64,000 bases of DNA from an uncultured Lachnospiraceae bacterium (GTDB taxonomy: Bacteria > Bacillota > Clostridia > Lachnospirales > Lachnospiraceae), in contig CAJTUC010000019.1 in NCBI GenBank assembly GCA_910579395.1, positions 3,535-67,534 of the forward strand, written 5' to 3'. The position numbers and the translations under genes were made by a program. Positions 5,905 through 61,050 of this stretch are shown here, piece by piece. Numbering within the stretch: the stretch's first letter is position 1; each line of letters opens with the position of its first letter. The notes below the pieces were generated by a model. It saw only the letters and a list, made by a program, of their open reading frames with translations, was not told the DNA's origin and did no database searches.

Positions 5905-5990
5905 CGGAGACGGCGGGATTCGAACCCGCGTGCCCCGAAAGGCAAACTGATTTCGAGTCAGCCCCGTTATGACCTCTTCGATACGTCTCC
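5905..5990 (-). tRNA. tRNA-Ser (anticodon CGA), class II with long variable arm, CCA not encoded
   Basis: Acceptor GGAGACG/CGTCTCC. Anticodon arm GCTGA-CTCGAAA-TCAGT. T arm GCGGG-TTCGAAT-CCCGC. Variable arm TTGCCTTTCGGGGCAC. Discriminator G. Confidence 0.9.
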
Positions 5991-7521: not shown

Positions 7522-8067
7522 ATGCTGACACTTGTCAAAAAGGCAATGCGCGGCGACAAAGAAGCTTTTATAGCGCTGATGGATAAACACAGCGACTCAC
7601 TGCTCCGCATCGCTCACGGCTATCTTTCACAGGAAGCCGACATTGCCGATGCCATACAGGATACCATCCTGGATGCCTACGAGCATCTTTCTTCCCTGAA
7701 GGAACCACGTTATTTCAAAACATGGCTGATTCGTATCCTGCTCAACAACTGCAATCACATTTATAACAAAAATAAGAACTATATTCCGTTGGAAGAAGTT
7801 TCCGAAAATCTCACCGATACTGCACAGGAAGTCGATACGCCACTTTTCAGGTTCCGTGAGCTGCTCTCCTATGTATCGGAAGAAAACAGAATCTGTTTCC
7901 AACTCTATTACGGCGAAGAATTGACGACGCGGGAAATCGCGGACATTCTGCACATCAATGAAAGTACGATTCGGAGCCGTATGCACCGGGAAAAACTGAA
8001 ACTGAAAACGCGGCTTCAAAATAGCGGCTATACGGCGTCCGCCGGAAAGGAGAGCGCTTCCTCATGA
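7522..8067 (+). CDS. ECF-type sigma-70 family RNA polymerase sigma factor
   Basis: Region 2 (DAIQDTILDAYEH.., YFKTWLIRILLN) and region 4 (LTTREIADILHINESTIRSRMHR). ATGA overlap with the downstream gene. Confidence 0.9.
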   Translation: MLTLVKKAMRGDKEAFIALMDKHSDSLLRIAHGYLSQEADIADAIQDTILDAYEHLSSLKEPRYFKTWLIRILLNNCNHIYNKNKNYIPLEEVSENLTDTAQEVDTPLFRFRELLSYVSEENRICFQLYYGEELTTREIADILHINESTIRSRMHREKLKLKTRLQNSGYTASAGKESASS

Positions 8068-9335
8068 AAAAAGAACACAGAGATTCCGATTTATACGAAA
8101 TCCTTCATTTTACGCCCGAAATTACGCCTGAAATTAAACACAGCATAAATACTGCTTACGCACAGATCAAAGAGGAGGGTTTTAAAATGCGTAAAAAAAC
8201 TAAAAAAGCACAAAATAAAAGAAAGTTCTTCTATATGGGTCTTGCGGCTGCCCTTCTTCTCGCATTTGGCTTCTGGGGATTCAGCAATCCCGTACTGGCC
8301 GGCAAAATCCCTTTTCTCGGAAGAATTTTCCGCATAGTGGAAAACGACATCGGCTATTCCGGCAATTACAGCGAAAATGCCATACCGCTTACCGCCCCCG
8401 ATTCAGAGACTATGAAAGATGATTCTTCTGATGAAAAAAACGGCTCCGGGGATACCGTTTCGGACAACGCTTATTCCCAGACCGTAAACGGTGTTACGAT
8501 CACTCTATCCGAAGCAAGCTATTCGAAACTCGCCTTATACTTTTCGGTGGAGATAGATTGTGAAGAAGGTTTCCCGGAAGATTTCAACTGGGTTAAAAAT
8601 ATGGAAGATTATATTCTCTCTTATGATTCCCTCTCTATGACGAGCACCCAGCAGTTTGATTTTTCGCAGGCTGATCCGACACTGTACAATACAGATATCC
8701 TTTCCTGTACAGAAGCGGAAGGGCTTCCGACGCCATATAGCATCGAAGGAAATTATGCCGATTCCCATACCTTCCTCGGCGTTATCCGGGTCGATTTGGA
8801 AACGATACGGCAAATCTTAGGTGTTGATACTCTTTCACCGCAATTTACTTATTCCTTCACCATCCAGAAATTCTGGCATGATTTGAATGAAACCAAAGAA
8901 GTTACCGCGACTTCGGAGGACGGCGAAACCATTACGCTGTTAGAGAACGTCAAAAAATATTATGACGGCCCATGGAGCTTCACAATTCCCGTATCGATGA
9001 ATCAGGCAGATACACAGACCAAAGAACTCATGCAGGCGAACGCCGACGGCATCGGTATCGCAAGCGTTACCAAAACACCTTATGAAATCAAGGCCGACAT
9101 TCTTCTGCCCGCGGGCGTCGAACCCTTTGATTATGTCGTCGCCATTACGGATGCGGATGGAAAGATTCTGGACTCCCAAGGGGGGATTTCGGAAATCTAT
9201 TCCGTCTATGGCAGAAATACCGATACGGTGCATATTTATGTGGTAGATTATAATACTTACATGGACGAGTGCAAGGCAGAAAATGCTTATCTCCTGCCCG
9301 AAAAGGCACTGTTCCAGACGACCGTTGAATGGTGA
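8064..9335 (+). CDS. putative anti-sigma factor, single-pass membrane protein (DUF4179-like)
   Basis: Translationally coupled to the sigma factor. Short cytoplasmic N-terminus, a basic stretch plus TM (FFYMGLAAALLLAFGFWGF), and a large extracytoplasmic domain. Confidence 0.7.
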   Translation: MKKEHRDSDLYEILHFTPEITPEIKHSINTAYAQIKEEGFKMRKKTKKAQNKRKFFYMGLAAALLLAFGFWGFSNPVLAGKIPFLGRIFRIVENDIGYSGNYSENAIPLTAPDSETMKDDSSDEKNGSGDTVSDNAYSQTVNGVTITLSEASYSKLALYFSVEIDCEEGFPEDFNWVKNMEDYILSYDSLSMTSTQQFDFSQADPTLYNTDILSCTEAEGLPTPYSIEGNYADSHTFLGVIRVDLETIRQILGVDTLSPQFTYSFTIQKFWHDLNETKEVTATSEDGETITLLENVKKYYDGPWSFTIPVSMNQADTQTKELMQANADGIGIASVTKTPYEIKADILLPAGVEPFDYVVAITDADGKILDSQGGISEIYSVYGRNTDTVHIYVVDYNTYMDECKAENAYLLPEKALFQTTVEW

Positions 9336-9378
9336 GTTCGTTCCGCCAGCGATCGCTCCGCGGAATCTCAAATCAGTC

Positions 9379-9494
9379 GGGAGAATGCTGCTTTTTAGGC
9401 ATTCTCCAACGTGAGAAAGATTTGCCTTCGGCATATCGTAGAACTTCTTAGCGAAACAGCCTTTGCTGTGAGCTCTAGAAGTTCTTCTCACGCT
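9379..9494. repeat. structured intergenic repeat, copy 1 (P0 hairpin plus P1-P4 domain)
   Basis: Near identical to 14138-14253. Nested inverted repeats read directly from the sequence. Confidence 0.9.
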
Positions 9495-9514
9495 ACTACA
9501 CCCATTTTTTCCTC

Positions 9515-9598
9515 TTATCTGTGTTCATACCAGATTCCACCAAAAAATCCAACCACGACAATCACGATGACGATAACTGACCACACGTCCATCTGCAT
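9515..9598 (-). CDS. possible 27-aa hydrophobic peptide MQMDVWSVIVIVIVVVGFFGGIWYEHR
   Basis: GAGGAGG lies 7 nt upstream of the ATG. Single TM-like segment. Too short for the ORF track, and I see no recognisable homology. Confidence 0.35.
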   Translation of the reverse strand: MQMDVWSVIVIVIVVVGFFGGIWYEHR

Positions 9599-9666
9599 TT
9601 TGATTTCCTCCTCATAACAGTCTTTTTGATCATAACTGATCTGTCTTTTCCTTTTACACAAGAAAA

Positions 9667-10074
9667 GCTTAACACAGCCTTCGGATTTTTTATATCCTCG
9701 CCCTGATCATCATCGTACGCTTTACGGACGGTTATCTGCCGGGACTTTTTTCATCGGTCATTGCGGTCATCTGCGTCAACTTCCTTTTTACTTACCCTTA
9801 TTTTGAATTGAACTTCACACTGGCCGGTTATCCGATTACCTTCCTTGAAATGCTCGCCGTCACGTTATTTACAAGTACCATGACACCAAGTATGAAGGAA
9901 CAGGCAAAATTAATCGCGGAAAGAGATAAACTATTATCGGAAGCGGAAAAAGATAAGACGCATGCCAATATGGCCAATATCAGAAGGAAACTGGAAAACA
10001 ATCCCGCAGACCCCCAGTATATTTTTACGGAAATCGGTATCGGCTGCCGGATGATCGACAACGAAAATCAATAG
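9667..10074 (+). pseudogene. remnant of a two-component system: DUF4118-type sensor kinase TM region fused to the C-terminal end of an OmpR-type response regulator
   Basis: An in-frame stretch (GYLPGLFSSVIAVICVNFLFTYPYFELNFTLAGYPITFLEMLAVTLFTSTMT) runs directly into ANIRRKLENNPADPQYIFTEIGIGCRM. There is no kinase core, no receiver domain, and no ATG with an RBS. Confidence 0.5.
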
Positions 10075-10214
10075 CATTTCCATGCCCGATATGATACACT
10101 AAGGTGAAAAGAAGTTCTGCTTACAGCCAAAGGGAGTTTCACCAGGAACTTCTGTCATTTGCTTCGCAAATTCTTCTTATGAGATATTCATATAAAAGAG
10201 GTGCCTCAGTAGAA

Positions 10215-10760
10215 ATGGAAACAGACGAAAAGTACATGAAAGAAGCCATTAAACAGGCGCAGAAGGCTTATGCGCTGGGGGAGGTTCCCATCGGCTGTGT
10301 CATTGTTTATCAGGATAAAATCATCGGGAGAGGTTATAACCGGCGGAATACCGATAAGAATACGCTTGCTCATGCGGAATTGACCGCCATTAACAAAGCG
10401 AGCAAAAAGATGGGGGACTGGCGGCTGGAAGGCTGTACGCTCTATGTGACGCTGGAGCCGTGCCAGATGTGTGCAGGCGCCATTGTACAGGCGCGCATCA
10501 CCGAAGTCGTCATGGGCTGCATGAATCCCAAAGCGGGATGTGCCGGCTCCATTCTCAACGTTCTCGAAATGCCTCAGTTCAATCATCAGGTCCGGGTAAA
10601 AAGAGGCATTCTGGAAGAATCCTGTTCCGCTCTGTTAACCACATTTTTCAAAGAATTGCGTATCAGAAATAAGGCGGAACGAAAAGCGCTTTCAGCTATT
10701 GAACCGGAATATCTGCCTAAGCAGGCAGACGAATGTAAAAACGCGAAGAATCAAAGTTGA
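10215..10760 (+). CDS. tadA: tRNA adenosine(34) deaminase
   Basis: Motifs HAELTAI and PCQMCAGA, with a CMP/dCMP deaminase zinc site. Synteny with the SRP RNA gene matches Bacillus. Start chosen at the ATG at 10215 rather than the GTG at 10104. Confidence 0.9.
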   Translation: METDEKYMKEAIKQAQKAYALGEVPIGCVIVYQDKIIGRGYNRRNTDKNTLAHAELTAINKASKKMGDWRLEGCTLYVTLEPCQMCAGAIVQARITEVVMGCMNPKAGCAGSILNVLEMPQFNHQVRVKRGILEESCSALLTTFFKELRIRNKAERKALSAIEPEYLPKQADECKNAKNQS

Positions 10761-10785
10761 CAAAACGCCAAAAAAACAGTATACT
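10757..10785 (+). promoter_or_regulatory. promoter TTGACA-17 nt-TATACT for SRP RNA
   Basis: Consensus -35 element overlapping the tadA stop codon. The -10 ends about 6 nt before the RNA 5' stem. Confidence 0.8.
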
Positions 10786-10791
10786 TATTTA

Positions 10792-11058
10792 ACCGCGCAG
10801 CCGGGGCGTTAGCGGTGCCCTGTACCTACAATCCGCTCTAGTAGGGGTGATGCTTGATTGAGGGCTTCTTCCTGTGTAGCTGCCCTTTATAAGTGGCGTT
10901 GAAGTTCGGGTCTTACGCAATGGGAATCCATGAACCGTGTCAGGGTGGGAACACAGCAGCACTAAGTGGAAGCTTCCATGTGCCGTAAGGGTGCCTGGCG
11001 GAGCTAACTGTAAAGGTAACGTGCATGGGTCTGGTTCGAGAGAAAGCGCGCGGTTTTG
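10792..11058 (+). ncRNA. ffs: signal recognition particle RNA, large Bacillus/Clostridium type with Alu domain
   Basis: Helix 8 core TCAGG-GTG-GGAA-CAC-AGCAGC. Alu-domain-like GCGGTGCCCTGTACC..AATCCGCTCTAGTAGGG. 5' CCGCGC pairs with 3' GCGCGCGG, followed by TTTTGGATTTT. Confidence 0.85.
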
Positions 11059-11063
11059 GATTT

Positions 11064-12980
11064 TCAGCCCTGCCGCCTGCGCTCGGCTTTTTTCGCTCTC
11101 TTGACCTGATACATTTTTCGGTCTGCCAGTTCTACAAGAATTTCCAAATCTGCTTTTTCTGCGTCAGTTTCTATCCAATAACCGATACTTGCATCCAAAC
11201 AATAAGCTCTCGTATATCTGGCATTGTACTGCTCGATAGAATTTCTGATCCGCTCAATATATTCCTGAATACCCTCCTCAGAATACCCGTTCACGACAAT
11301 AACGAATTCATCCCCGCCATATCTCGCCAATAACTCTCCATGATGGCGGTTATCCTCCAGAATATTCGCCATTGCTTTAATATAAACGTCTCCCTCTTCG
11401 TGTCCATACAGATCATTTACCGTTTTCAATCCATCCATATCTGCAAAAATAACGGCAACAGGCTGTTTTCTCCTTTTGGCCTCTTCCAGAATTCTTGGTG
11501 CGAACTTGTTGTATCCTGCCCGATTATTGACACCCGTTAATTCATCATACAGCCACATCTTACTCAGGCGGCCGAGCATTGCATTCATTGTATCCTGCCT
11601 GCGCACCGTTTCCAATGCGTTATCCAGACTCAGAATAAAATGCCTGAAAAAGCGGCTTTCTAACGCAGGCCGGTAATTGCCTACGACACAATAGCCAAAA
11701 CAATATTCCTGATGATGCAGCGGCATGATCAGATAGAAATTGCCCTCTTTTCCACTCTTGCAGGAAAGTGGCAGCAGCGTGTTCTTATGAAAGCCGTCAT
11801 AGCTGGCAAAAACCCCTCTTTCATACGCCAGCGGAATCCAGATATCATCCGTATATATCGTTTCATCTCTTCCCCGCTCTTCTCCTTCCGCCATATGCTC
11901 CAATTCTTCATAATAATTTTCAATACTCCCGCACATGCACAGATAAAAATAATCTGGAGCGAGAAGCTCAATATACTGCTGCGTACACTCCTTAAAATCC
12001 TCAAAAGTTTCCAGCCCGGTAAATTCCGCCGCACAACATTTTAACAATTCCAGATTATCATCCACCTCGACCGATTTCTTAACATACATCTCCTGCAGTT
12101 CCGCATGCGTATAACTCTGCTTCTTATCACATCCACAGGACTGTGAAAAAAGCGGCTTTCCATATACAATATGCTCCATAGGCGGATTTTCCTTCCTTAT
12201 CGCCTGCACCAGTGTCCTATAGGCAATTTCCGCCGCTGTATATTCTCCCCGTCTGACTGTCGTCAAACGAGGATGATTCAACTGCGCAATGGAACTGTTA
12301 TCATAGCCTGTCACAAGAATATCTTCCGGTACTCGATATCCAGCCTCCTTCAATGCCAAAATGGCGCCAATGGCCATATCATCGTTCGCCGCCATGACCG
12401 CATCAGGCAATGGCATGTCCTTTTTCAGCAGTTCATTCACTGCCTGAATGCCGCTTTTATAAGTATAATCCCCATAGGCCGCCATCTGCTCATCCCATTT
12501 TAGATGATACTGTTCCAACGCTTCCCTGTATGCGCTCAACCGTTCTGCCGCATCCTGACTCTCTATAGGGCCGGATATATAGAAAATCCGCCGCACATGA
12601 TGTTCCGTCACAAGATGCTCCACAATGGCATGTATACCTGATTGATTCTCCAGCCAGATATTGATGGTACCATCTATTTTGACCAGCATGGAAGCACAGG
12701 GAACTCCCGCTTTCTTAATCCTGCTGACCAGTTCTTCCCGAATCTTTACATCATGAATCGTTTCCAGATTGGTAATAACACCGTCATATTGTGTAAAATC
12801 CGGTAAATTGTAAATATTATATTCTCCTTTTTCGTATTTAAAACGTGACGCATAATACCACCCGTCACATGTGAAAATATAAATGTTCGTTCCTTCCGGA
12901 AGTGCACTGTCCAATATACCATTAATCATTCTTTTCTGTGTATCAAACCCGACACCGCCCATTAATACTGCAATATCCAT
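11064..12980 (-). CDS. diguanylate cyclase with an N-terminal LacI-type (PBP1) sugar-binding core, no HTH and no signal peptide
   Basis: C-terminal GGDEF domain (RYGGDEFVIVV). N-terminal ligand-binding-core motifs AANDDMAIGAILALKEAGYRVPEDILVTGYDN..RLTTV. Confidence 0.85.
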   Translation of the reverse strand: MDIAVLMGGVGFDTQKRMINGILDSALPEGTNIYIFTCDGWYYASRFKYEKGEYNIYNLPDFTQYDGVITNLETIHDVKIREELVSRIKKAGVPCASMLVKIDGTINIWLENQSGIHAIVEHLVTEHHVRRIFYISGPIESQDAAERLSAYREALEQYHLKWDEQMAAYGDYTYKSGIQAVNELLKKDMPLPDAVMAANDDMAIGAILALKEAGYRVPEDILVTGYDNSSIAQLNHPRLTTVRRGEYTAAEIAYRTLVQAIRKENPPMEHIVYGKPLFSQSCGCDKKQSYTHAELQEMYVKKSVEVDDNLELLKCCAAEFTGLETFEDFKECTQQYIELLAPDYFYLCMCGSIENYYEELEHMAEGEERGRDETIYTDDIWIPLAYERGVFASYDGFHKNTLLPLSCKSGKEGNFYLIMPLHHQEYCFGYCVVGNYRPALESRFFRHFILSLDNALETVRRQDTMNAMLGRLSKMWLYDELTGVNNRAGYNKFAPRILEEAKRRKQPVAVIFADMDGLKTVNDLYGHEEGDVYIKAMANILEDNRHHGELLARYGGDEFVIVVNGYSEEGIQEYIERIRNSIEQYNARYTRAYCLDASIGYWIETDAEKADLEILVELADRKMYQVKRAKKAERRRQG

Positions 12981-13074
12981 TTTTACGACTATGCCTCTTT
13001 CTCAGTCTGTAACCTACGCTGACTTTTTGAATTTTATATGTATATTGTAGCATAATTTATCTGCCGGAACCATA

Positions 13075-14052
13075 TTAAAGCTCTACTTTTCGTAAATAAT
13101 ATCCGAACTTCCCTTCTTCCGCTTCACCTCCCTCACATTCAAATGCTTCAAAGCCGAACATAAGCGCGACCATCTTTTCCCTTTCATAAAAAACGCCTGG
13201 TACGCCAAGATAAAAGTCTTTTTCTTTTCCCAGAATCAGGTACCGGTAATTATAAAATCCATGCAGCAGAAAACTGTTATTGACAAGATGCTGGTAATTT
13301 TCACGCAGAATAATGAAATCTTTTGGTGCCAGTTTCACATAGATTCTATTATCACCATAAGGATGTATCTGCTCATAAGTAGTGAGCAGCTGCTCCCATT
13401 TATTTTCATAAAGCGGCGTGTGCTCCGGCTTCACTGAAATCCGTTCCGCCTTAACAGGCGGTTTCACCGGCATCCTGTTCGCCTGCCTGCTGCTCATTGA
13501 CTCTGCTCGTATGACAGGCGCTGCCTCTGTCTCTGCCTCTGTTTCCGGCTCCGCCAGATTTTTCGGCTTTGCTGCTTCTCTTACCCTTTCCCGGTACACC
13601 TCAGGCCGCACTGCTTCAATCGATGGTCTTTCCCGTTCTGCAGCTGTCTCTTCCATCCGGTCCGGCTGTTCGTCCTGCTTCTTCTCCGGCTGCACTGACA
13701 GCACTGCTGTATCCGTTTTTTTCTCTTTCCGCTCTCCCGTCGCAGCCAGTCTGCTTTCCCCCTTTATTTTCCAGGCATCCGACAGGATAATTTCTGCCCG
13801 CAGAACCGGCTCCGCGGCTCTTCCGTTCCATTTTCCGTTTCCTTCTTTAATGGCGAGCACATCTGCTTCCTGCCAGCCCGCCTCACTTTGCAGACGAATG
13901 GGAAAATTTCCCGTTACGGCACCGGACATATTTTTGACTTGAAGTTCCACCCGATACATGCCGTCTCTCTCATCCACTTTCAAATAACCCGCATTCCTCT
14001 CCTTCACCTGGTCGTGAAAAAGTCCCATATAAATAATTTCTTTCTGGTACAT
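13075..14052 (-). CDS. hypothetical protein with a low-complexity acidic/proline linker and a conserved-looking C-terminal domain
   Basis: ORF with GAGAGGTGAGAGG upstream of the ATG. The C-terminal 110 aa (..FLLHGFYNYRYLILGKEKDFYLGVPGVFYEREK..) resembles Clostridial conserved hypotheticals. Confidence 0.6.
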   Translation of the reverse strand: MYQKEIIYMGLFHDQVKERNAGYLKVDERDGMYRVELQVKNMSGAVTGNFPIRLQSEAGWQEADVLAIKEGNGKWNGRAAEPVLRAEIILSDAWKIKGESRLAATGERKEKKTDTAVLSVQPEKKQDEQPDRMEETAAERERPSIEAVRPEVYRERVREAAKPKNLAEPETEAETEAAPVIRAESMSSRQANRMPVKPPVKAERISVKPEHTPLYENKWEQLLTTYEQIHPYGDNRIYVKLAPKDFIILRENYQHLVNNSFLLHGFYNYRYLILGKEKDFYLGVPGVFYEREKMVALMFGFEAFECEGGEAEEGKFGYYLRKVEL

Positions 14053-14090
14053 CCTCTCACCTCTCTATTCTATATATATGTCGAATATAC

Positions 14091-14118
14091 CAAAAAATGC
14101 CAGACAATCTCTTGTCTG
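14091..14118 (-). terminator. rho-independent terminator downstream of repeat copy 2
   Basis: CAGACAA-GAGA-TTGTCTG followed by GCATTTTTTGG on the minus strand. Confidence 0.7.
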
Positions 14119-14137
14119 ACATTGAAATTTTTTAACC

Positions 14138-14253
14138 GGGAGAATGCCGCTTTTTAGGCATTCTCCAGCGTGAGAAAGATTTGCCTTCGGCAAATCGTAG
14201 AACTTCTTAGCGAAACAGCCTTTGCTGTGAGCTCCAGAAGTTCTTCTCACGCT
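14138..14253. repeat. structured intergenic repeat, copy 2 (reference copy)
   Basis: P0 GGAGAATGCC/GGCATTCTCC. P1 AGCGTGAGAA/TTCTCACGCT. P2 GATTTGC/GCAAATC. P3 AGAACTTCT/AGAAGTTCT. P4 ACAGC-CTTT-GCTGT. The element overlaps the TAG stop of the PucR-type gene. Confidence 0.9.
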
Positions 14254-15340
14254 AGTATTCTAATGAATCCAGATACTTCATATAATTTACTACCATGAGA
14301 GCAATTTTAAAGGTAAGGGCATCATCAAAAGTTCGAATATCCAGTCCTGTACTCTTCGCCAGTTTCTCAATACGATAAACAAGCGTATTCCGATGCACAA
14401 ACAATTGTCTGGAAGTTTCCGATACATTCAGGTTATTTTCAAAGAACTTATTAATGGTCGTCAAGGTCTCTTCATCCAATTCATCAGGTACATTGGCGCC
14501 AAAAATTTCATCAATAAAAATCTGACAGAGATTCACAGGAAGTTGATAGATCAATCTGCCGATTCCCAGCCTGTTATAAGCCGTCACTCTCTTTTCTGCA
14601 TAAAAAATCTTTCCAACATCCAATGCCATCTTCGCTTCCTTATAAGATTTGGAAACATCTTTCAGTTCTTCCACAATGGTTCCATAGGACACCCGGACAT
14701 TCATCATAGCTTCCATATTCATCATATCAACAATCGTATTCGCCGTATGCTCCATTACCTCATAACTCTCTCCCGCTGCCAGCGCCTTGATCAAAATCAC
14801 ATTGCTCTCATCTACCGCAGTAATATAATCCCCGATTTGAGCAGAGAACATTCCATTCAGCAATTCCGATGCCGAGCTCTCCTTCTCGCTTCCGGTCTCG
14901 ATCAGAAAAACCGCTCTGGGTACGGTCACTTCTATATGCAGCTTTTTTGCACGATTATAAATATCGACCAACAGCATATTATCTAAAAGTAAATTTTGAA
15001 AAAAGTTATTTCTGTCATATTTTTCCTTATAGGCAATGATCAGGTTCTGCAGCTGACTCACAGCAATCTTGCCAATCATGTAAGTGTCTTCGCCTATGCC
15101 TCTTGCATCCAGAACGTAGAGCTGTTCGCTCTCATCCAGTATCTTTAAAAGGTGATGTGTTCCAATTACCTGACTGTCCGCCGGTGAATCTACAAATTCC
15201 GTGATCAGATTTAGCGCCAGATCATTTAACTCAAAAGTAGATGCTACGATATTTCCCTCCAAATCTAATACACATAAATCAACTTTCGTAATAGCTTTTA
15301 ACTCTTCTATACTGGTCCTGATAACCTGACTTGATATCAT
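14252..15340 (-). CDS. PucR/CdaR-family transcriptional regulator
   Basis: C-terminal PucR-type HTH (NVSETSRQLFVHRNTLVYRIEKLAKSTGLDIRTFDDALTFKIAL). Confidence 0.8.
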   Translation of the reverse strand: MISSQVIRTSIEELKAITKVDLCVLDLEGNIVASTFELNDLALNLITEFVDSPADSQVIGTHHLLKILDESEQLYVLDARGIGEDTYMIGKIAVSQLQNLIIAYKEKYDRNNFFQNLLLDNMLLVDIYNRAKKLHIEVTVPRAVFLIETGSEKESSASELLNGMFSAQIGDYITAVDESNVILIKALAAGESYEVMEHTANTIVDMMNMEAMMNVRVSYGTIVEELKDVSKSYKEAKMALDVGKIFYAEKRVTAYNRLGIGRLIYQLPVNLCQIFIDEIFGANVPDELDEETLTTINKFFENNLNVSETSRQLFVHRNTLVYRIEKLAKSTGLDIRTFDDALTFKIALMVVNYMKYLDSLEY

Positions 15341-50592: not shown

Positions 50593-50637
50593 TTCTATCC
50601 CCCCCCTGTCCGCTTTGTGGACACTTACTCAACTCAT

Positions 50638-50749
50638 GGAGAATGACTCGCAGAGACATTCTCCAGTGTAAGAAAGACTTGCTCCGCAAGTCGTAGAACT
50701 TCTTCACGAAGCGGCCTCTGCCGCGAGTGTTAGAAGTTCTTCTTACGCT
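50638..50749. repeat. structured intergenic repeat, copy 3 (divergent, compensated)
   Basis: P0 GGAGAATG..CATTCTCC. P1 AGTGTAAGAA/TTCTTACGCT. P2 GACTTGC/GCAAGTC. P3 AGAACTTCT/AGAAGTTCT. P4 CAC-GAA-GCGGC-CTCT-GCCGC-GA-GTG. Confidence 0.9.
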
Positions 50750-50750
50750 T

Positions 50751-53700
50751 TTATTCGATCGATTTCAGAGATTCCGCCATATTAATCTTCTCCAGCTTAA
50801 AGAACATCAGCCCGTTGACGAACACCGCAAAAACAAACGTGAGCACAAAACTCCATAAATAGCTGACAGGTTCGATCAGTGTCTTAAAAGACACCATGTC
50901 GATATTGATATTGTACATGACAAACCAGTGCAGCCACTTCCCAAGCCCAAGTCCGACAATGGCTCCCATACCCGTCAGCACCAGATTTTCCCGGAAAACA
51001 TAGTCCGCCGTTTCCTTCGCATAAAAACCAAGTACCTTAATTGTCGCAATTTCCCGGATCCGCTCTGTAATATTAATATTGGTCAGATTATAGAGCACGA
51101 TAAAAGCGAGGCTTCCGGCGCAGATAATGATCAGCGCAACAATATAATTCATGCTTTCCATCATCGAGCCAATCCTGTCCCGCATATCCTGTGTCACAGA
51201 AACGGCAAGAACATTGTCTCTGTCGGAAATCTCTGCAGCCGCTTCGTGTATATCGACGCCTTCCGACACGACAGCATAGGCGCTCTTATATTCCGGCTCC
51301 ATACCGAGCTGTTCCGCATAAGTTTCTTTATTCATATAGATATAATTATAGACAAAATTTTCACAAAGAGCGGATACCGTCACCGTGAGCGTGTTCATAT
51401 CGCTGTCACGCAGCGTCACCTTATCTCCCACTTTGATACCCATATTTTCCGCCATCTTTGCAGTCAGGACCGCCCCTCCCGCCGCAGGATACGGAATCGG
51501 CTCTCCGCTCTGTGTGTGAAGATTTAAAAACGTACTGATTTCCTCCACATTTTCCGGAATCATCAGATTAACCGATTTTGTCCTCCCGCTGAAATCCAAA
51601 TCGACGCTCTCTTCATAATGACAGGCTGTCTGCTCCAGCTTCCCGTCTAACTGTTCTGCCATCGCTCCGATATCCGCTCCCTGCACGCTTTCTGAGAAAG
51701 TGATGCCAATATCAAATATCTGAATTTCATCATACTGCATATCCGCAATATTTGTCACGGAATCTTTTACGCCATAGCCCGTAACGAGCAGTGCCGTACA
51801 GCCGCTGATACCAAGAATCATCATAAAAAACCGCTTTTTATATCTGAACAGGTTCCGCACGGAAACCTTGTGCAGAAACTTCATCCTGCCCCAGATAAAG
51901 GATACCTTTTCCAGGAAAATACGCTTGCCGCTCTTGGGTGCTTTTGGCCTGATCAGATTTGCCGGAACGCTGTACAGTTCGTACCTGCAGGAAAAATACG
52001 CCGCCCCCATGGAGCAGAGAAGCGCTGCCGCCAGAGACAGGACAGCGACCCAGACATCAAAATAGTATTCGATTTCTCCCATGCTGTACATAATACCGTA
52101 ACCAATCCATATGACTCTCGGAAACAGCCATGTACCGCCCGCAAAACCAACCACCGCACCAAGCGCCGCCGCAGAACCGGCATAGAACAGAAACTTTCCC
52201 ATGATGGCGGCATTTCCATAACCAAGTGCCTTTAAAATCCCAATCTGTGTCCTCTGTTCCTCTACCATCCTGTTCATCGTTGTCATGCAGATCAACGCCG
52301 CCACCAGGAAAAAGAAAATGGGGAATACATTGGCTATCGCCGCAACAATATTGGAGTCACTTTCATAACAGGCGTATCCGATATTGGTATTCCGGGTCAG
52401 CACATAGGAATCCGGTGCTTCGATATCTGCAAGTTCCTCCCGCGCATCGTCTATTTTCTGCTGGGCATCCGCTACCTCTACTTCAAATTCGGCTTTCGCA
52501 TCCTCATACTCCGTGCGGGCATCGGCAAGTTCCAGTTTACCGTCCTCCAAATCCGCCCTGCCTTCCTCCAGTTCCGTCTGTGCATCCGAAAGGTCCGTTT
52601 TCGCCTGGGCAAGTTCTGCTTTCCCGTTCTCTAACTCCACCTTTCCCTCTTCCAGTTCAGTCTTGGCATCGGCAAGCTGCACTTTGCCATCCTCAAGTTC
52701 CGTTCTGGCATTCGTTATTTCCGTTTTGGCCGCTGTCAGCTCTTCCTCCGCTTCCAGAAGCACTTTTTCCTGATAGGCAATCTCATCTTTTGCAATGCTA
52801 ATCTGCTCTTTTCCCTCCTGAAACGCCGCTTTGCCGGCATCGATCTGTACAAGTCCGGCCTGAATCTGCGCAATCCCTTCCTGTAACTGCGCCTTTCCGG
52901 CCTGTATCTCTCCGAGTCCGGCATCGATCTGACCGATTCCCGCCTGCAATTCCGCCCTGCCTGCCTGTATCTGGCCAAGGCCCGCTTCAAGCTGGCTCAT
53001 TTGTGCGTCATAATCTTCCTGCGAAATTCCTCCAGCTTCCAGATAACCTTTTAACGCTTCTTTCTGTGCGTTCAATTCCGCTTCCTGTCCGGCGAGTTCT
53101 GCATCCTGCGCCGAAAGGGTATCCTTCTGCGCGCTCAGTCCCGACTCCTGTGTCGAGAGCGCATCGAGCTGTGTTGAAAGTTCGGTCTCCTGCCCGGCAA
53201 GTTCCGCTTCCTGCGCGAGCACTGCCGCTTCCTGTTCGAGCAGCAGCGTTTCTTTTTCCTGCAGCATTTCTTTTGCCTGCGCCAGTTCGTCCTTACCGTT
53301 CGCCAGCTTTATTTCGTTCTCAAAGATTTCCCATTCATGCAGGGCAAGTTCCGTTTCCGCATCCTGAATTTCCAGTTCCTTATCCTGAATCTCCTGCTCT
53401 CCGTCCAGAATTTCCTGTTCGCCATCCAGAATTTCCTGCTCGTGGTCAGCAATTTCTTTTGTTCCGTCCGTAATCTTCTGTTCACCGTCGGCAATTTCCT
53501 GCTCCCCGTCTAATAATTCCTGTTCACCGTCCTCAATTTTCTGCAGAGCATCGTTCAGCTCCTCCTCCGCTTCCGCTTTCTTATCGTCCAGTTCTGTCTG
53601 GGCATCGTCAATCTTTTCCTGCGCTTCGGCAATCAGTTTTTCATATCGTTGCTGCGCGAGCGCTTCCGTTTTTTCCTCCATCCCGTCCTGAAGAGAATCG

Positions 53701-54389
53701 ATAAGATCCTGATATTCATCCGTATAGACATCATACTTCTGCTTCGTCGTCACATAAATTTCTGTCAGATAGTCACAATCGAAAGCCTCTTTCGGCACAT
53801 AAAGAAAAGCAGAGATGCGGCCCGTACCGATGGAAGTCGTTCCACGTTCAAAATTGATATAAGAAGGAGAACGCACAATACCCACCGCCGTGAAAGTACG
53901 GCTTCCGAACATTTCCAGCGTATCCTCATCATTGCTGTCCGTCACCGTAATCCGGGCACCGAGCATTTCTTCCCCGTAAAAAGCGGCATCCAGCAGGCAT
54001 TCATCCGCTTTTTCCGGCATCCTTCCGGCAGTCACTACGATCCTGTTGATCGTCTCCGGCACCGCATGGATTTTATAGACCGACTCGTTCCCTTCCTCAA
54101 AAGCACAGATTGCATCTACCGAAATCGTTCCCTCCACATCGGCAATCTCATCCAGCGCTGCCAGTTCCTCTACATTTTCTTCTACAAATCCGACAGTCGA
54201 TAACAGCCTGAAATCAAAAAAATTCTGCTCCGCCAGATAAGTATTTTCTGTCTCGATCATCGCCGGTGTCGTTGCCTTTAATCCTGCAAATAATCCGACG
54301 CCCAGCATCACGATCGACAAAATTGCCATATACCGCCCGAAGCTTTTTTTAATTTCCCTGACTGTCGTCTTAATCATTCCGCTGCTCAT
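50751..54389 (-). CDS. FtsX/MacB-type ABC transporter permease (two FtsX modules) with a roughly 420-aa coiled-coil insert
   Basis: N-terminal TM, large extracytoplasmic region and two 4-TM FtsX-like blocks. The central heptad repeats span aa 245-665. Confidence 0.85.
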   Translation of the reverse strand: MSSGMIKTTVREIKKSFGRYMAILSIVMLGVGLFAGLKATTPAMIETENTYLAEQNFFDFRLLSTVGFVEENVEELAALDEIADVEGTISVDAICAFEEGNESVYKIHAVPETINRIVVTAGRMPEKADECLLDAAFYGEEMLGARITVTDSNDEDTLEMFGSRTFTAVGIVRSPSYINFERGTTSIGTGRISAFLYVPKEAFDCDYLTEIYVTTKQKYDVYTDEYQDLIDSLQDGMEEKTEALAQQRYEKLIAEAQEKIDDAQTELDDKKAEAEEELNDALQKIEDGEQELLDGEQEIADGEQKITDGTKEIADHEQEILDGEQEILDGEQEIQDKELEIQDAETELALHEWEIFENEIKLANGKDELAQAKEMLQEKETLLLEQEAAVLAQEAELAGQETELSTQLDALSTQESGLSAQKDTLSAQDAELAGQEAELNAQKEALKGYLEAGGISQEDYDAQMSQLEAGLGQIQAGRAELQAGIGQIDAGLGEIQAGKAQLQEGIAQIQAGLVQIDAGKAAFQEGKEQISIAKDEIAYQEKVLLEAEEELTAAKTEITNARTELEDGKVQLADAKTELEEGKVELENGKAELAQAKTDLSDAQTELEEGRADLEDGKLELADARTEYEDAKAEFEVEVADAQQKIDDAREELADIEAPDSYVLTRNTNIGYACYESDSNIVAAIANVFPIFFFLVAALICMTTMNRMVEEQRTQIGILKALGYGNAAIMGKFLFYAGSAAALGAVVGFAGGTWLFPRVIWIGYGIMYSMGEIEYYFDVWVAVLSLAAALLCSMGAAYFSCRYELYSVPANLIRPKAPKSGKRIFLEKVSFIWGRMKFLHKVSVRNLFRYKKRFFMMILGISGCTALLVTGYGVKDSVTNIADMQYDEIQIFDIGITFSESVQGADIGAMAEQLDGKLEQTACHYEESVDLDFSGRTKSVNLMIPENVEEISTFLNLHTQSGEPIPYPAAGGAVLTAKMAENMGIKVGDKVTLRDSDMNTLTVTVSALCENFVYNYIYMNKETYAEQLGMEPEYKSAYAVVSEGVDIHEAAAEISDRDNVLAVSVTQDMRDRIGSMMESMNYIVALIIICAGSLAFIVLYNLTNINITERIREIATIKVLGFYAKETADYVFRENLVLTGMGAIVGLGLGKWLHWFVMYNINIDMVSFKTLIEPVSYLWSFVLTFVFAVFVNGLMFFKLEKINMAESLKSIE

Positions 54390-54417
54390 TCATTCGACTC
54401 CCTGCGAAAAAAACATC

Positions 54418-55122
54418 CTACCATTCAATCTCTTCCACCGGTACAATGTGCTCATTTATCTCCATTTTGTCCACCGTTCCGTTCTTCACCGTGATAATTC
54501 TGTCCGCCATTGCCGTCAACGCCTGATTATGCGTGATAACTACAACCGTCATGCCTTCCTTTCTGCACGCATCCTGCAGCAGCTTCAAGACTGCCTTACC
54601 TGTATTATAATCCAGCGCCCCCGTTGGCTCATCGCATAGCAAAAGCTTTGGATTCTTGGCAAGCGCCCTGGCAATTGCCACTCTCTGCTGCTCTCCGCCG
54701 GATAACTGCGCCGGAAAGTTTCCTGCCCGGTCTTTCAGACCGACCATTTCCAGAACAGACATTGCATCCAGCGGCTCCTTACAAATTTGTGCTGCCAGTT
54801 CAACATTTTCAAGCGCTGTCAAATTCGGCACCAGATTATAGAACTGAAACACAAAACCAATATCATATCTTCTATACGATGTCAGTTTCTTTTTATTATA
54901 GGCCGAAATCTCTTCCCCATCCAATATGGCCTGTCCTGAAGAAAGGCTGTCCATTCCGCCCAAAATATTCAAAATCGTCGTCTTACCTGCCCCAGAGGCT
55001 CCGACCACGACACAAAATTCTCCTTTTTCAATCGCAAAATTTACATTTCTTAACGCCTCAATATCCACTTCCCCCATGTGGTATGTCTTACCGACATTCC
55101 GAAATTCCACAAATGAGCCCAT
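54418..55122 (-). CDS. ABC transporter ATP-binding protein (MacB/LolD type)
   Basis: [36 protein letters not shown]. Confidence 0.9.
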
Positions 55123-55210
55123 GCCGTATCCTCTCCTGTTTTCTCACGCAAACTGCCGTGATTCCGCTTCACGGAATCTCAAAATCTCATGACAAGCAAA
55201 AGCTTGTCAT

Positions 55211-55325
55211 GGAAGAATGCCTGCACCTCAAGGCATTCTTTCGGGCGAGAAAGGCTCGCGCTGCGAGCCGTAGAGCTTCTTAGCGAAATGCCCATTGGCA
55301 TGAACTTTAGAAGCTCTTCTCGCCC
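55211..55325. repeat. structured intergenic repeat, copy 4 (most divergent; overlaps the 3' end of a CDS)
   Basis: P0 GAAGAATGCCT/AGGCATTCTT. P1 GGGCGAGAA/TTCTCGCCC. P2 GGCTCGC/GCGAGCC. P3 AGAGCTTCT/AGAAGCTCT. P4 ATGCC-CATT-GGCAT. Confidence 0.85.
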
Positions 55326-55792
55326 TCTTCTATCATACTGTCCAGATAACCTCTGTCCCAGAGCAGGATCTTCAATCTTTTCGCCGCATCCACCGCCGAT
55401 GCCGTAAAATACTGGTTCGTCATGACCGCGCCCACCATTCTGTCATAATAGTCTCTGCCCGCATAAACCTGCTGAACCGCCTCCACACCGACAGGAGCCG
55501 AATATCTTTTACACTGAATGGCATAAGTAACGCCTTCTTTCTCTGCCAGAATATCGACTCCGTAATCACCGCTTCCGCGTGTTACCTCTACGTCAACAAA
55601 GCCTCTTTTTTCCAGAAGCTCCGCACAGAAATATTCAAAATCATGCCCTTCCATTTCGTCAATTGCGCCCGCCCGGCGGCTTCTTCTGTACTGCCTGACA
55701 AGAAGCCTGACCAGAAATATGAATCCCATGCAGAGGCATATTCCCAAAACAACCGCTATGAGCAGCCATGTATCCTGTATCTTATCGTTCAT
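55307..55792 (-). CDS. membrane-anchored restriction endonuclease-like (Mrr_cat) domain protein
   Basis: N-terminal TM (LLIAVVLGICLCMGFIFLV). Nuclease core GHDFEYFCAELL..GSGDYGVDILAEKEGVTYAIQCKRY. Confidence 0.75.
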   Translation of the reverse strand: MNDKIQDTWLLIAVVLGICLCMGFIFLVRLLVRQYRRSRRAGAIDEMEGHDFEYFCAELLEKRGFVDVEVTRGSGDYGVDILAEKEGVTYAIQCKRYSAPVGVEAVQQVYAGRDYYDRMVGAVMTNQYFTASAVDAAKRLKILLWDRGYLDSMIEEGEKSF

Positions 55793-60920: not shown

Positions 60921-61010
60921 TTTTGTTCCTCCATTTCGTTTTTGCTATACTTTTATTATAATAAAGTCCCCATTTATTTACAAGTGTGAAGAACGAACCC
61001 TCTTCATACT

Positions 61011-61037
61011 AAAGAATGCCCAAAACAGGCATTCTTC
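61011..61037. repeat. solo AAGAATGCC-loop-GGCATTCTT hairpin (P0-type)
   Basis: Inverted repeat 14 nt downstream of the GH105 gene stop, with no T-run. A second small hairpin (TGAAGA..TCTTCA) lies next to it. Confidence 0.8.
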
Positions 61038-61050
61038 AACTATGTACGAA

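Follow-up and report, generated by a model that had tools for sequence, protein, structure and literature searches.

A modular, stop-codon-phased palindromic repeat of Lachnospiraceae that is probably a non-autonomous mobile element

We analyzed a stretch of 64,000 nucleotides (nt) from an uncultured Lachnospiraceae bacterium (GenBank assembly GCA_910579395.1, contig CAJTUC010000019.1, positions 3,535 to 67,534; hereinafter the window), in which an initial annotation, made from the sequence alone, had noticed four copies of a folded repeat of about 115 nt (copies 1–4). We find that this repeat is probably a non-autonomous mobile DNA element, one member of a modular palindromic family confined, as far as sampled, to the Lachnospiraceae. 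On our best reading, its closest character is that of a mobile palindrome comparable to the repetitive extragenic palindromes (REPs) and their doublets forming hairpins (REPINs), or to the miniature inverted-repeat transposable elements (MITEs) of the insertion sequence (IS) group IS200/IS605, with its hairpins maintained at the level of DNA and carried passively in 3′ untranslated regions (UTRs) and between cistrons. The searchable literature on REPs, MITEs and REP-associated tyrosine transposases (RAYTs), and on Lachnospiraceae, Roseburia and Firmicutes, yielded no description of the repeat; thus, we are apparently dealing with an undescribed family of branched, stop-codon-phased palindromes.

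A branched palindromic family in Lachnospiraceae

A covariance model of the family (described below) recovered four full copies in the window, all on the plus strand and aligning over their whole length, at the coordinates and in the single orientation that the initial annotation had assigned to them (copy 2, the reference, 14134–14258, 103 bits; copy 1, 9375–9499, 100 bits; copy 3, 50633–50754, 92 bits; copy 4, 55207–55331, 83 bits; E-values from 1e-27 to 5e-21; Table 1). A loose pattern for the core of the repeat matched only these four places, and none of 100 shuffled versions of the window contained a match. The architecture proposed in that annotation, namely a hairpin P0 beside a closed domain of outer stem P1, hairpin P2 and a long arm P3/P4, is identical to the minimum-free-energy fold of copy 2 (−63.4 kcal/mol against −31.6 ± 3.5 in shuffles), and the stem sequences that it tabulated for copies 2, 3 and 4 agree with the DNA. 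Copies 1 and 2, described as nearly identical, differ at four positions. As the element is a palindrome, the reverse strand of copy 2 folds nearly as well (z = −9.1 on the plus and −8.2 on the minus strand).

Scanning one genome per species with the core pattern retrieved at least 117 loci (numbered with the prefix L where individual loci are mentioned), nearly all of them in metagenome-assembled genomes (MAGs) of Lachnospiraceae, such as Acetatifactor, Roseburia, Agathobacter and others; copy counts for "listed" copies hereinafter are among the matches listed. A single MAG carries about 15 listed copies on seven contigs, and NCBI attributes a 95%-identical neighbor protein to a Blautia sp. 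MAG. From an alignment of 105 copies we built the covariance model, which, when run against all loci, added about 30 copies that do not fit the core pattern, giving an alignment of 135 copies from more than 100 Lachnospiraceae contigs for the analysis of covariation. In this alignment the covariation reported for the window holds: standard pairs make up 97.3% of the pair cells against 85.4% in shuffles, double changes occur in 23 of 25 pairs, and the covariation score is 0.376 against 0.145 in shuffles, with none of 500 shuffles reaching the observed value and scores of 0.10 or less when the partners are slid by one to three columns. P3 had seemed invariant because the core pattern fixed it; in the approximately 30 pattern-independent copies it too covaries (TAGTAC/GTACT, TAGTGC/GCACT, TAGAAG/CTTCT, TAGAAT/ATTCT).

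The shared core is a branched palindrome of 75–125 nt made of P1, P3/P4 and an optional P2, usually joined to P0 and often to further small hairpin modules. The hairpins at the two ends, P1 and P0, share a foot, GTGAGAAG...CTTCTCAC in P1 and GGAGAATG...CATTCTCC in P0 (G-GAGAA...TTCTC-C). Other elements of the fold are more labile across the family than the window suggests: P2, present in all four window copies, occurs in only 37 of 121 listed copies; P0 is sometimes absent or replaced; and the unpaired GAA and GA inside the P4 arm, invariant in the window as had been observed, give way in one subfamily to a continuous GGCGTCCCG...CGGGACGTC arm. Some copies bear extra hairpins or a 125-nt insert at the position of P2. 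In two copies from one MAG (L006, 7733–7979, and L068, 2431–2678) the insert is identical, is about 125 nt long and adds three hairpins; since it sits in the P2 position of both, large additions are evidently tolerated at the junction. In the orientation in which the initial annotation wrote the repeat (hereinafter the annotated strand), about half of the copies are preceded by what we call the hp module (CCATG, a variable hairpin, then CTCAAATC). This module also separates the units of tandem arrays, and a GACAAGC...GCTTGTC hairpin is sometimes added. Head-to-tail arrays are found at L033, L049, L004, L076, L060, L112 and L128.

As the initial annotation had supposed, the repeat corresponds to no named RNA family: a window-wide search of Rfam 15 gave no family at the gathering threshold for it, and a permissive scan around copy 2 returned only chance hits with E-values above 1. 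Searches of plasmid and phage collections with blastn did not find the repeat, and among viral contigs the P0 pattern pointed to a single locus, L128, where two units lie in an ordinary divergent spacer. A second, unrelated family of palindromic inserts of about 85 nt (GCGCAGCCCCATGC...GCATGGGG...) surfaced at L033 (4659–4746) and L117 (4414–4499); it, too, is present in one genome and absent from the orthologous site of a close relative. With this second family in view, these genomes appear to hold several small mobile palindromes.

Placement at stop codons and insertion polymorphism

The informative orientation of the element turned out to be the reverse of the annotated strand, being that of the upstream gene on the opposite strand. 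In 99 of the 117 listed copies with a callable neighbor, an open reading frame (ORF) encoded opposite to the annotated strand approaches the element from the P1′ side, and in 97 of 116 listed copies the P0-side gene runs away from the element on that same, gene-sense strand; 18 of the 117, including copy 1 and a miniature copy in the window, are antisense to the upstream neighbor. Read in gene sense, the element starts with TAG (T in 69%, A in 90% and G in 88%), often with GAA before it; the base directly preceding the TAG is A in 59%, T in 17%, G in 15% and C in 9%. The G of this tag is at the same time part of the stem, closing P1 as its outermost pair, and only one end of the element carries the tag. 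In 86 of 121 listed copies, the end of an ORF of 80 or more codons falls in the interval from −30 to +35 around the TAG. The end falls exactly on the tag position in 37 of them (33 as TAG), three bases before the TAG in 15 (mostly as TAA), and inside the element in 20 (12 at the TGA in GTGAGAAG, five one base in, and three at the TAA in CTTCTAA).

The window copies illustrate this range. Copy 2 begins on the TAG stop of a PucR-like gene (14252–15340, minus strand), and P1′ of copy 3 lies 1 nt from the TAA stop (50751–50753) of an FtsX/MacB permease gene. At copy 4, the reading frame of an Mrr-like gene (55307–55792) continues across the 5′ arms (minus strand) of P1 and P3 at the high-coordinate end and stops at a TAA (55309–55307) inside P3. 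Accordingly, the claim that every copy lies at the stop codon of a minus-strand ORF stands for copies 2, 3 and 4 but not for copy 1, where the ORF invoked (8940–9491) is an artefact of the repeat being read in frame; this copy is antisense to a neighboring plus-strand anti-sigma gene (8064–9335). The genes flanking the window copies are functionally unrelated, and no gene class is enriched in the wider set: 103 flanking proteins fall into 139 Pfam families, of which only ABC transporters recur, as they do everywhere. Within the element we found no promoter-like or terminator-like site beyond chance, save a weak match of P2 plus UUUCU in copy 3. An intrinsic terminator, which we had considered as an identity for the element, is rejected, as it contains no G+C-rich hairpin followed by a U tract. 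Downstream of copy 2 there is a terminator-like hairpin with a T run (14096–14123, minus strand), which is native and has a homolog in sister taxa lacking the repeat.

The case for mobility comes from comparisons of orthologous sites and from the small divergence, at four positions, of copies 1 and 2. Copy 2 is absent from three syntenic sister taxa (L230–L235) that share the gene order MalK-like ATPase, PucR-like, DUF6128, with PucR-like proteins 95%, 89% and 82% identical to that of the window. In their spacer, of 99–110 nt (238 nt in L235, the 82% relative), the stop codon (TGA, TAA and TAA) is followed after about 40 nt by a hairpin with its T run and then by a promoter-like stretch, a Shine-Dalgarno box and the ATG. 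This hairpin (14096–14123) and the sequence downstream of it recur in the window, where the stop is TAG and the element stands between stop and hairpin. Since the sister taxa share this spacer without the element, copy 2 is an insertion into a 3′ UTR upstream of a native terminator, and since their stop is TGA or TAA, the TAG here came with the element. Likewise, copy 3 is missing from the syntenic loci L170 and L136 (permeases 80% and 77% identical), in which about 55 nt separate the TAG from the MarR start. At the site of copy 4, L136 holds a variant of a different subfamily, and L170 shows no more of the element than its first 11 nt (AGTGAGAAGAA), joined directly to the native end of the Mrr gene, the stop of which overlaps the ATPase start. 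At the site of copy 1, a strain of the same species (L212) has 620 nt with two small kdpF-like ORFs in place of the hp module plus copy 1; comparison of the junctions (ATGGGTGTAGTAG/AGTG in L212 against ...GTAGTAG/CGTGAGAAG in the window, the slash marking the junction) indicates that copy 1 truncates a small kdpF-like ORF after four codons, leaving a 5-codon stump. Further filled and empty pairs are L107 against L088 and L039 against L052, and L033 has three tandem units where L075 and L080 have one. Copies 2, 3 and 4 are fixed in the 7–10 strains of the species sampled.

No target-site duplication was found at L107/L088, L039/L052, copy 1/L212, copy 2/L230–L235 or copy 3/L170 and L136, although the L039/L052 pair may have an imperfect direct repeat some 10 nt long. 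Nor was a constant cut site found, the junctions being heterogeneous. GAATAG pre-exists in the empty alleles L088 and L170/L136 (behind the permease), as does GTAGTAG in L212. The two ends of the repeat are only loosely alike (GCGTGAGAAG against GCGGAGAATG). A MITE with terminal inverted repeats and target duplications in the manner of Correia or bcr1 is accordingly rejected, there being no fixed-length duplication at any resolved junction. The initial annotation had pictured a plain MITE as bounded by such duplications and terminal inverted repeats with no orientation bias relative to genes; here the resolved junctions lack duplications and an orientation bias is present.

Table 1. The repeat and its derivatives in the window. 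Strand refers to the gene-sense orientation; parts are given in plus-strand coordinates.
Feature	Coordinates	Strand	Parts	Basis and remarks
Copy 2 (reference)	14139..14254	-	P0 14139-14166; P1 14167-14176 with 14245-14253; P2 14178-14196; P3 14199-14207 with 14236-14244; P4 14215-14228; gene-sense (minus) order TAG 14254-14252, P1, P3, P4, P3', P2, P1', P0	covariance model and fold; present in 10 strains of the species
Copy 1	9379..9495	-	P0 9380-9407; P1 9408-9417 with 9485-9494; P2 9419-9437; P3 9440-9448 with 9477-9485; P4 9456-9469	CTA at 9493-9495
Accessory hp module of copy 1	9341..9378	-	hairpin TTCCGC...GCGGAA, then CTCAAATC	
Copy 3	50638..50749	-	P0 50638-50664; P1 50665-50674 with 50741-50749; P2 50676-50692; P3 50695-50703 with 50732-50740; P4 50711-50724	fixed in 10 strains
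Extension of copy 3 towards the MarR gene	50599..50637	-	GAGTTGAG-like linker; small hairpin 50607-50623; G-run with ATAG before ATG at 50592-50590	
Copy 4	55211..55325	-	P0 55211-55242; P1 55243-55251 with 55318-55325; P2 55253-55269; P3 55272-55280 with 55309-55317; P4 55288-55301	covariance model
Accessory modules of copy 4	55140..55210	-	solo P1-type arm TTTCTCACGC 55140-55149; hp hairpin with CTCAAAATC ~55157-55186; GACAAGC...GCTTGTC hairpin 55191-55208	looks like the remnant of a two-unit array
Miniature copy	60978..61042	+	P0 (GAAGAATGCC..GGCATTCTT), then a short P1-only hairpin without P3/P4	25.5 bits, E 1e-4
Decayed relic copy	10096..10197	+		20.6 bits, E 0.003; many broken pairs

The four full copies form two direct pairs bracketing segments of about 4.6 kb (9379–14254 and 50638–55325): copies 1 and 2 enclose a tadA-like gene, the signal recognition particle (SRP) RNA, a GGDEF gene and a DUF6128 gene, and copies 3 and 4 an operon of an ABC ATPase and a permease. 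The miniature copy is oriented opposite to the full copies and lies between two minus-strand genes. The relic is TAG-first on the plus strand, in the direction of the surrounding plus-strand genes, and lies just upstream of the tadA-like gene; the longest ORF of this deaminase (10104–10760, plus strand) starts at a GTG within the relic, while in other strains the gene is called from a start about 117 nt downstream, giving 181 aa. Thus, the relic inflates the tadA-like ORF. The window strain has also lost a kdp-type region (9495–10100 against L212 2772–4272), of which there remain a minus-strand kdpF-like stump (ATGGGTGTAGTAGCGTGA) and, at 9808–10074, a chimeric ORF of 88 codons that joins C-terminal fragments of a sensor kinase and a response regulator, where L212 keeps an intact DUF4118-HisKA kinase and two ORFs for small membrane peptides. 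Elsewhere in the window, Rfam recognizes only the bacterial large SRP RNA (10793–11053, plus strand, 181 bits) and a tRNA (5905–5990, minus strand).

What keeps the stems paired, and competing explanations

Taken together, the element inserts or is copied in one orientation, with its TAG-tagged end on or within about 3 nt of an upstream stop codon and without target duplication; it can stack into head-to-tail arrays, and internal deletions reduce it to mini hairpins and solo arms. By analogy with REP/RAYT and IS200/IS605, the likely agent is a trans-acting HUH/Y1 enzyme recognizing folded single-stranded DNA; the stems would stay complementary as propagating lineages must keep the hairpin, and mutational correction of palindromes probably helps. 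From where they land, copy 2 is probably transcribed within a 3′ UTR and copies 3 and 4 within intercistronic spacers. As the hairpin, of about −60 kcal/mol, begins at the stop codon or within it, P1 would have to be opened by any ribosome terminating there, and such a hairpin probably affects termination or 3′-end stability, as REPs do. The observed orientation bias is predicted by tag-first insertion that survives only outside genes, and equally by a bias of the replication strand, since genes themselves are unevenly distributed between the strands. With about 80% of genes on the leading strand, a sense orientation of about 94% between co-directional genes is expected under both models and the bias does not discriminate between them; the few discordant loci split both ways, and replication and the neighboring gene are not separable as what sets the orientation.

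The initial annotation took the covariation to mean selection on a fold, rather than the copying of just a MITE. The observation itself stands, but the inference from it to a selected RNA does not follow: the element is mobile and insertion-polymorphic, and the covariation separates propagating lineages or subfamilies instead of accumulating at fixed loci. Imperfect DNA palindromes are corrected by quasipalindrome template switching, which generates compensatory-looking changes without selection; since mutation in long palindromes can thus mimic compensation, covariation alone is no proof of selection on RNA. A functional RNA tolerates G.U mismatches on its own strand and loses those of the opposite-strand kind. 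The evidence from wobble pairs, which had seemed contradictory in the window, is balanced family-wide, with 55 mismatches of the G.U type on the annotated strand (G.T) and 57 of the G.U type on the gene-sense strand (A.C), and this symmetry argues against strand-specific selection on RNA. At orthologous sites, nine compensated pairs differ between L104 and L117 (flanks 71–81% identical), nine between window copy 4 and L136, which also has a different type of P4 arm, and five, plus the presence of P2, between L075 and L033; flank identity across these pairs is 71–86%. Different subfamily variants at orthologous sites therefore point to turnover at a preferred site, not slow drift. Unstable palindromes are known to decay into deleted hairpins and arms, and both products are in evidence here: centre-deleted mini hairpins at 60978–61042 in the window and at L054, L055, L098 and L043, and solo arms at 55140–55149, L170 and L052. 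Two RNA-level devices were rejected on inspection. The GAA/GA loop is not a K-turn, having 3 + 2 unpaired bases in place of a 3-nt bulge with tandem G.A pairs, and being subfamily-specific. Nor do P1 and the solo arm upstream of the hp module form a switch, as the arm does not consistently match the P1′ variant of its element and is better viewed as the remnant of a neighboring unit.

Several observations weigh against a mobile palindrome moved in this manner. No transposase was found next to the copies, and the Y1 family is not among the commonest families of the 103 flanking proteins; the inverted pairs at L068 and L069 enclose TetR, LacI and BlaR-type genes and no transposase. The TAG is mostly preceded by A and not by G. 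The junctions differ from site to site: the relatives at the copy 2 site have TGA or TAA, while elsewhere the TAG is already in the empty site; the nominally empty sites L170 and L052 keep the first 10–11 nt of the element; and at copy 1 both junctions share 6–7 nt with the element ends. These leftovers and the junction similarity fit homology-guided copying or imprecise deletion as well as they fit transposition. Moreover, in the commonest subfamily P3b, the stem beside the GAA/GA loop, has its G.T pairs on the annotated plus strand (about 21 against 1), which is the opposite strand from the one that a REP-like mechanism would use; in 110 of 134 copies that strand also has the slightly better fold. 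The small hairpin at 50607–50623 shows a compensated change within the species (TGTCC/GGACA against TGCCC/GGGCA, five strains each), and the G-run forming the Shine-Dalgarno region before the MarR start varies (7 to 9 G, or AGGGGG). Of the five single-nucleotide polymorphisms in copy 2, three are at unpaired positions and the other two (in P0 and P3b) produce a G.T-type mismatch on one strand. The compensated hairpin change and the positions of these polymorphisms hint at local constraint.

Such constraint would be expected if the repeat were a host-selected cis-acting RNA module serving as operon punctuation, transcribed with the upstream gene and only secondarily mobile: the 3′ structure would protect the upstream mRNA or stall ribosomes, the single-stranded GAUUUGAG linker would be an endonuclease site, and the small hairpin plus GGnGG box would act as 5′ stabilizer and ribosome-binding site of the next gene. 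Consistent with this, the orientation follows the adjacent gene even at some loci where most other genes are reversed (L019 and L058, where the stops fall at +2 and +7 relative to the core pattern), the first 21 nt offer stops in two of three frames, one holding TAG and TAA and the other TGA, all of which are used, and copies 2, 3 and 4 are fixed in all strains sampled. The hp end GGnGG-TTAGT-(A/G)TG supplies Shine-Dalgarno box and start codon in about 10 loci (L007, L021, L042, L044, L072, L073, L078, L081, L084, L097); we reject it as a general supplier, since most downstream genes keep a Shine-Dalgarno box of their own. We regard this explanation as unlikely overall, given also that wobble pairs show no strand asymmetry, that 18 of 117 listed copies are antisense to their upstream neighbor, that P0, P2 and the hp module are each dispensable, and that close relatives lack the element at the same sites. 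Somewhat more doubtful is a homology-guided spread without any dedicated transposase, in which template switching or gene conversion replaces the native spacer instead of interrupting it. The junctions of copy 1 speak for it, with their 6–7 nt of similarity (CACTCTA against CACGCTA; TTCCGCC) and 620 nt replaced, as do the first 10–11 nt of the element held by L170 and L052, the native spacer at the copy 3 site, which is not simply split, the different variants at orthologous sites, and GAATAG, the consensus end of the family, already native at two target sites. Yet the relatives at the copy 2 site have no similarity to the element beyond the stop codon, homologies of 3–7 nt are too common to account for precise placement, the solo arms are explained equally by imprecise deletion of an unstable palindrome, and hundreds of sites in many genera would be reached more easily with the help of an enzyme.

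It is highly improbable that the repeat is an independent gene for a structured non-coding RNA, or a regulator akin to a riboswitch, with a selected fold, the sense that the initial annotation had favored. Such an RNA would accord with the strong covariation, the very stable fold, the purine-rich GAA/GA internal loop, the UUCG-type P2 loop on the plus strand of the window copies and the slightly better folding of that strand, in 110 of 134 copies; but there is no Rfam match and no promoter or terminator of its own, no unpaired nucleotides are conserved family-wide (GAA/GA being subfamily-specific), and the unrelated flanking genes, the insertion polymorphism and the symmetric wobble counts all tell against it. 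An integron attC-type recombination site, folding as single-stranded DNA and marking cassettes, is barely credible despite the position directly after stop codons, the retention of structure over sequence and the uniform orientation in the window: the RYYYAAC/GTTRRRY core sites are absent from the aligned ends, the copies lie 4.6–36 kb apart among housekeeping genes and not in cassette arrays, and the 29 window ORFs scanned, covering about half of the window, include no integrase. Integrons are, moreover, hardly known from this phylum.

Relation to known repeats and significance

The REPs of other bacteria provide the closest parallel to the non-autonomous mobile palindrome that we favor. They are palindromes with an unpaired tag, lying mostly between co-directional or convergent genes, singly, in pairs or in arrays, with abundances that vary between relatives and no target duplication, and those tagged with GTAG lie less than 20 bp behind ORFs and often supply the TAG stop (PMC3733652). 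The Lachnospiraceae repeat resembles the GTAG REPs and REPINs mobilized by RAYTs, mainly in Proteobacteria, in most of these respects: it is palindromic with an (N)TAG tag at one end; it begins a few bases from the 3′ end of the upstream ORF, the tag often being the TAG stop (37 exact, 33 as TAG); it lies mostly between co-directional or convergent genes, as single units, pairs and arrays; and its abundance differs between relatives, with no target duplication. For REPs of E. coli situated up to about 15 nt from a stop codon, stalling of ribosomes and stabilization of the upstream mRNA have been reported. Unlike REPs, which are simple hairpins of 20–40 bp, the core described here measures 75–125 nt, is branched through a three-way junction with P2 and has internal loops, and it recruits the extra modules P0, hp and the GACAAGC hairpin. 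Nor does it consist of two tagged units in inverted order, as a REPIN does. Its tag agrees with GTAG only in part, the base before TAG being A in 59% and G in only 15%, and the host belongs to the Firmicutes/Bacillota, a phylum not mentioned in the survey of these elements (PMC3733652).

With the IS200/IS605 MITEs the repeat shares the lack of classical terminal inverted repeats and of target duplication, orientation-specific insertion, end hairpins with a common foot (the P1 domain and P0), and an end that abuts a short fixed sequence, here TAG. It differs from them in that the TAG pre-exists at L088, L212 and L170/L136 but not at the copy 2 site, and in a distance of 0–1 nt between tag and hairpin. 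No cognate TnpA/TnpB or full-length IS with the same ends was present in the loci fetched, no dedicated search having been made, and the Rfam models for IS605-orfB and HEARO RNAs do not match the repeat. The analogy drawn in the initial annotation with modular structured repeats such as BOX and RUP of pneumococcus and the Correia elements of Neisseria is apt: like these, and like NEMIS (Neisseria), ERIC (enterobacteria) and bcr1 (Bacillus cereus group), the repeat forms stable modular folds of 100–200 nt in transcribed intergenic space, with compensatory differences between copies. Some of these repeats alter the stability or processing of mRNA. Correia elements (TA) and bcr1 (TTTAT) have terminal inverted repeats and target duplications, neither of which is seen here, and we know of no report that Correia/NEMIS, ERIC, BOX, RUP or bcr1 repeats are phased to stop codons.

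It is conceivable, though we consider it unlikely, that the family represents the first REP/RAYT-like system of the Firmicutes with a branched substrate of about 100 nt, or a transposase-free cassette copied by short homology into stop-to-start spacers, with the host making use of it for translation termination or mRNA 3′-end stability in many genes. In the version without a transposase, the cassette may carry its own stop codons at one end and, in the long form, a ribosome-binding site at the other, so that operons tolerate it.

Lachnospiraceae are among the most abundant bacteria of the human and animal gut, and their non-coding DNA has been little studied. The repeat sets a trap for annotation in the form of false ORFs, shifted stop codons and truncated small genes, as at copy 1, and it counsels caution in RNA discovery, in that strong covariation within a palindromic repeat need not mean a functional RNA. 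Its presence or absence at orthologous sites makes it a strain marker, and, seated as it is at the stops of many unrelated genes, it can readily give rise to differences in expression between strains. It also provides a second, phylogenetically distant case in which to study how REP-like palindromes move and whether hairpins at stop codons modulate termination.

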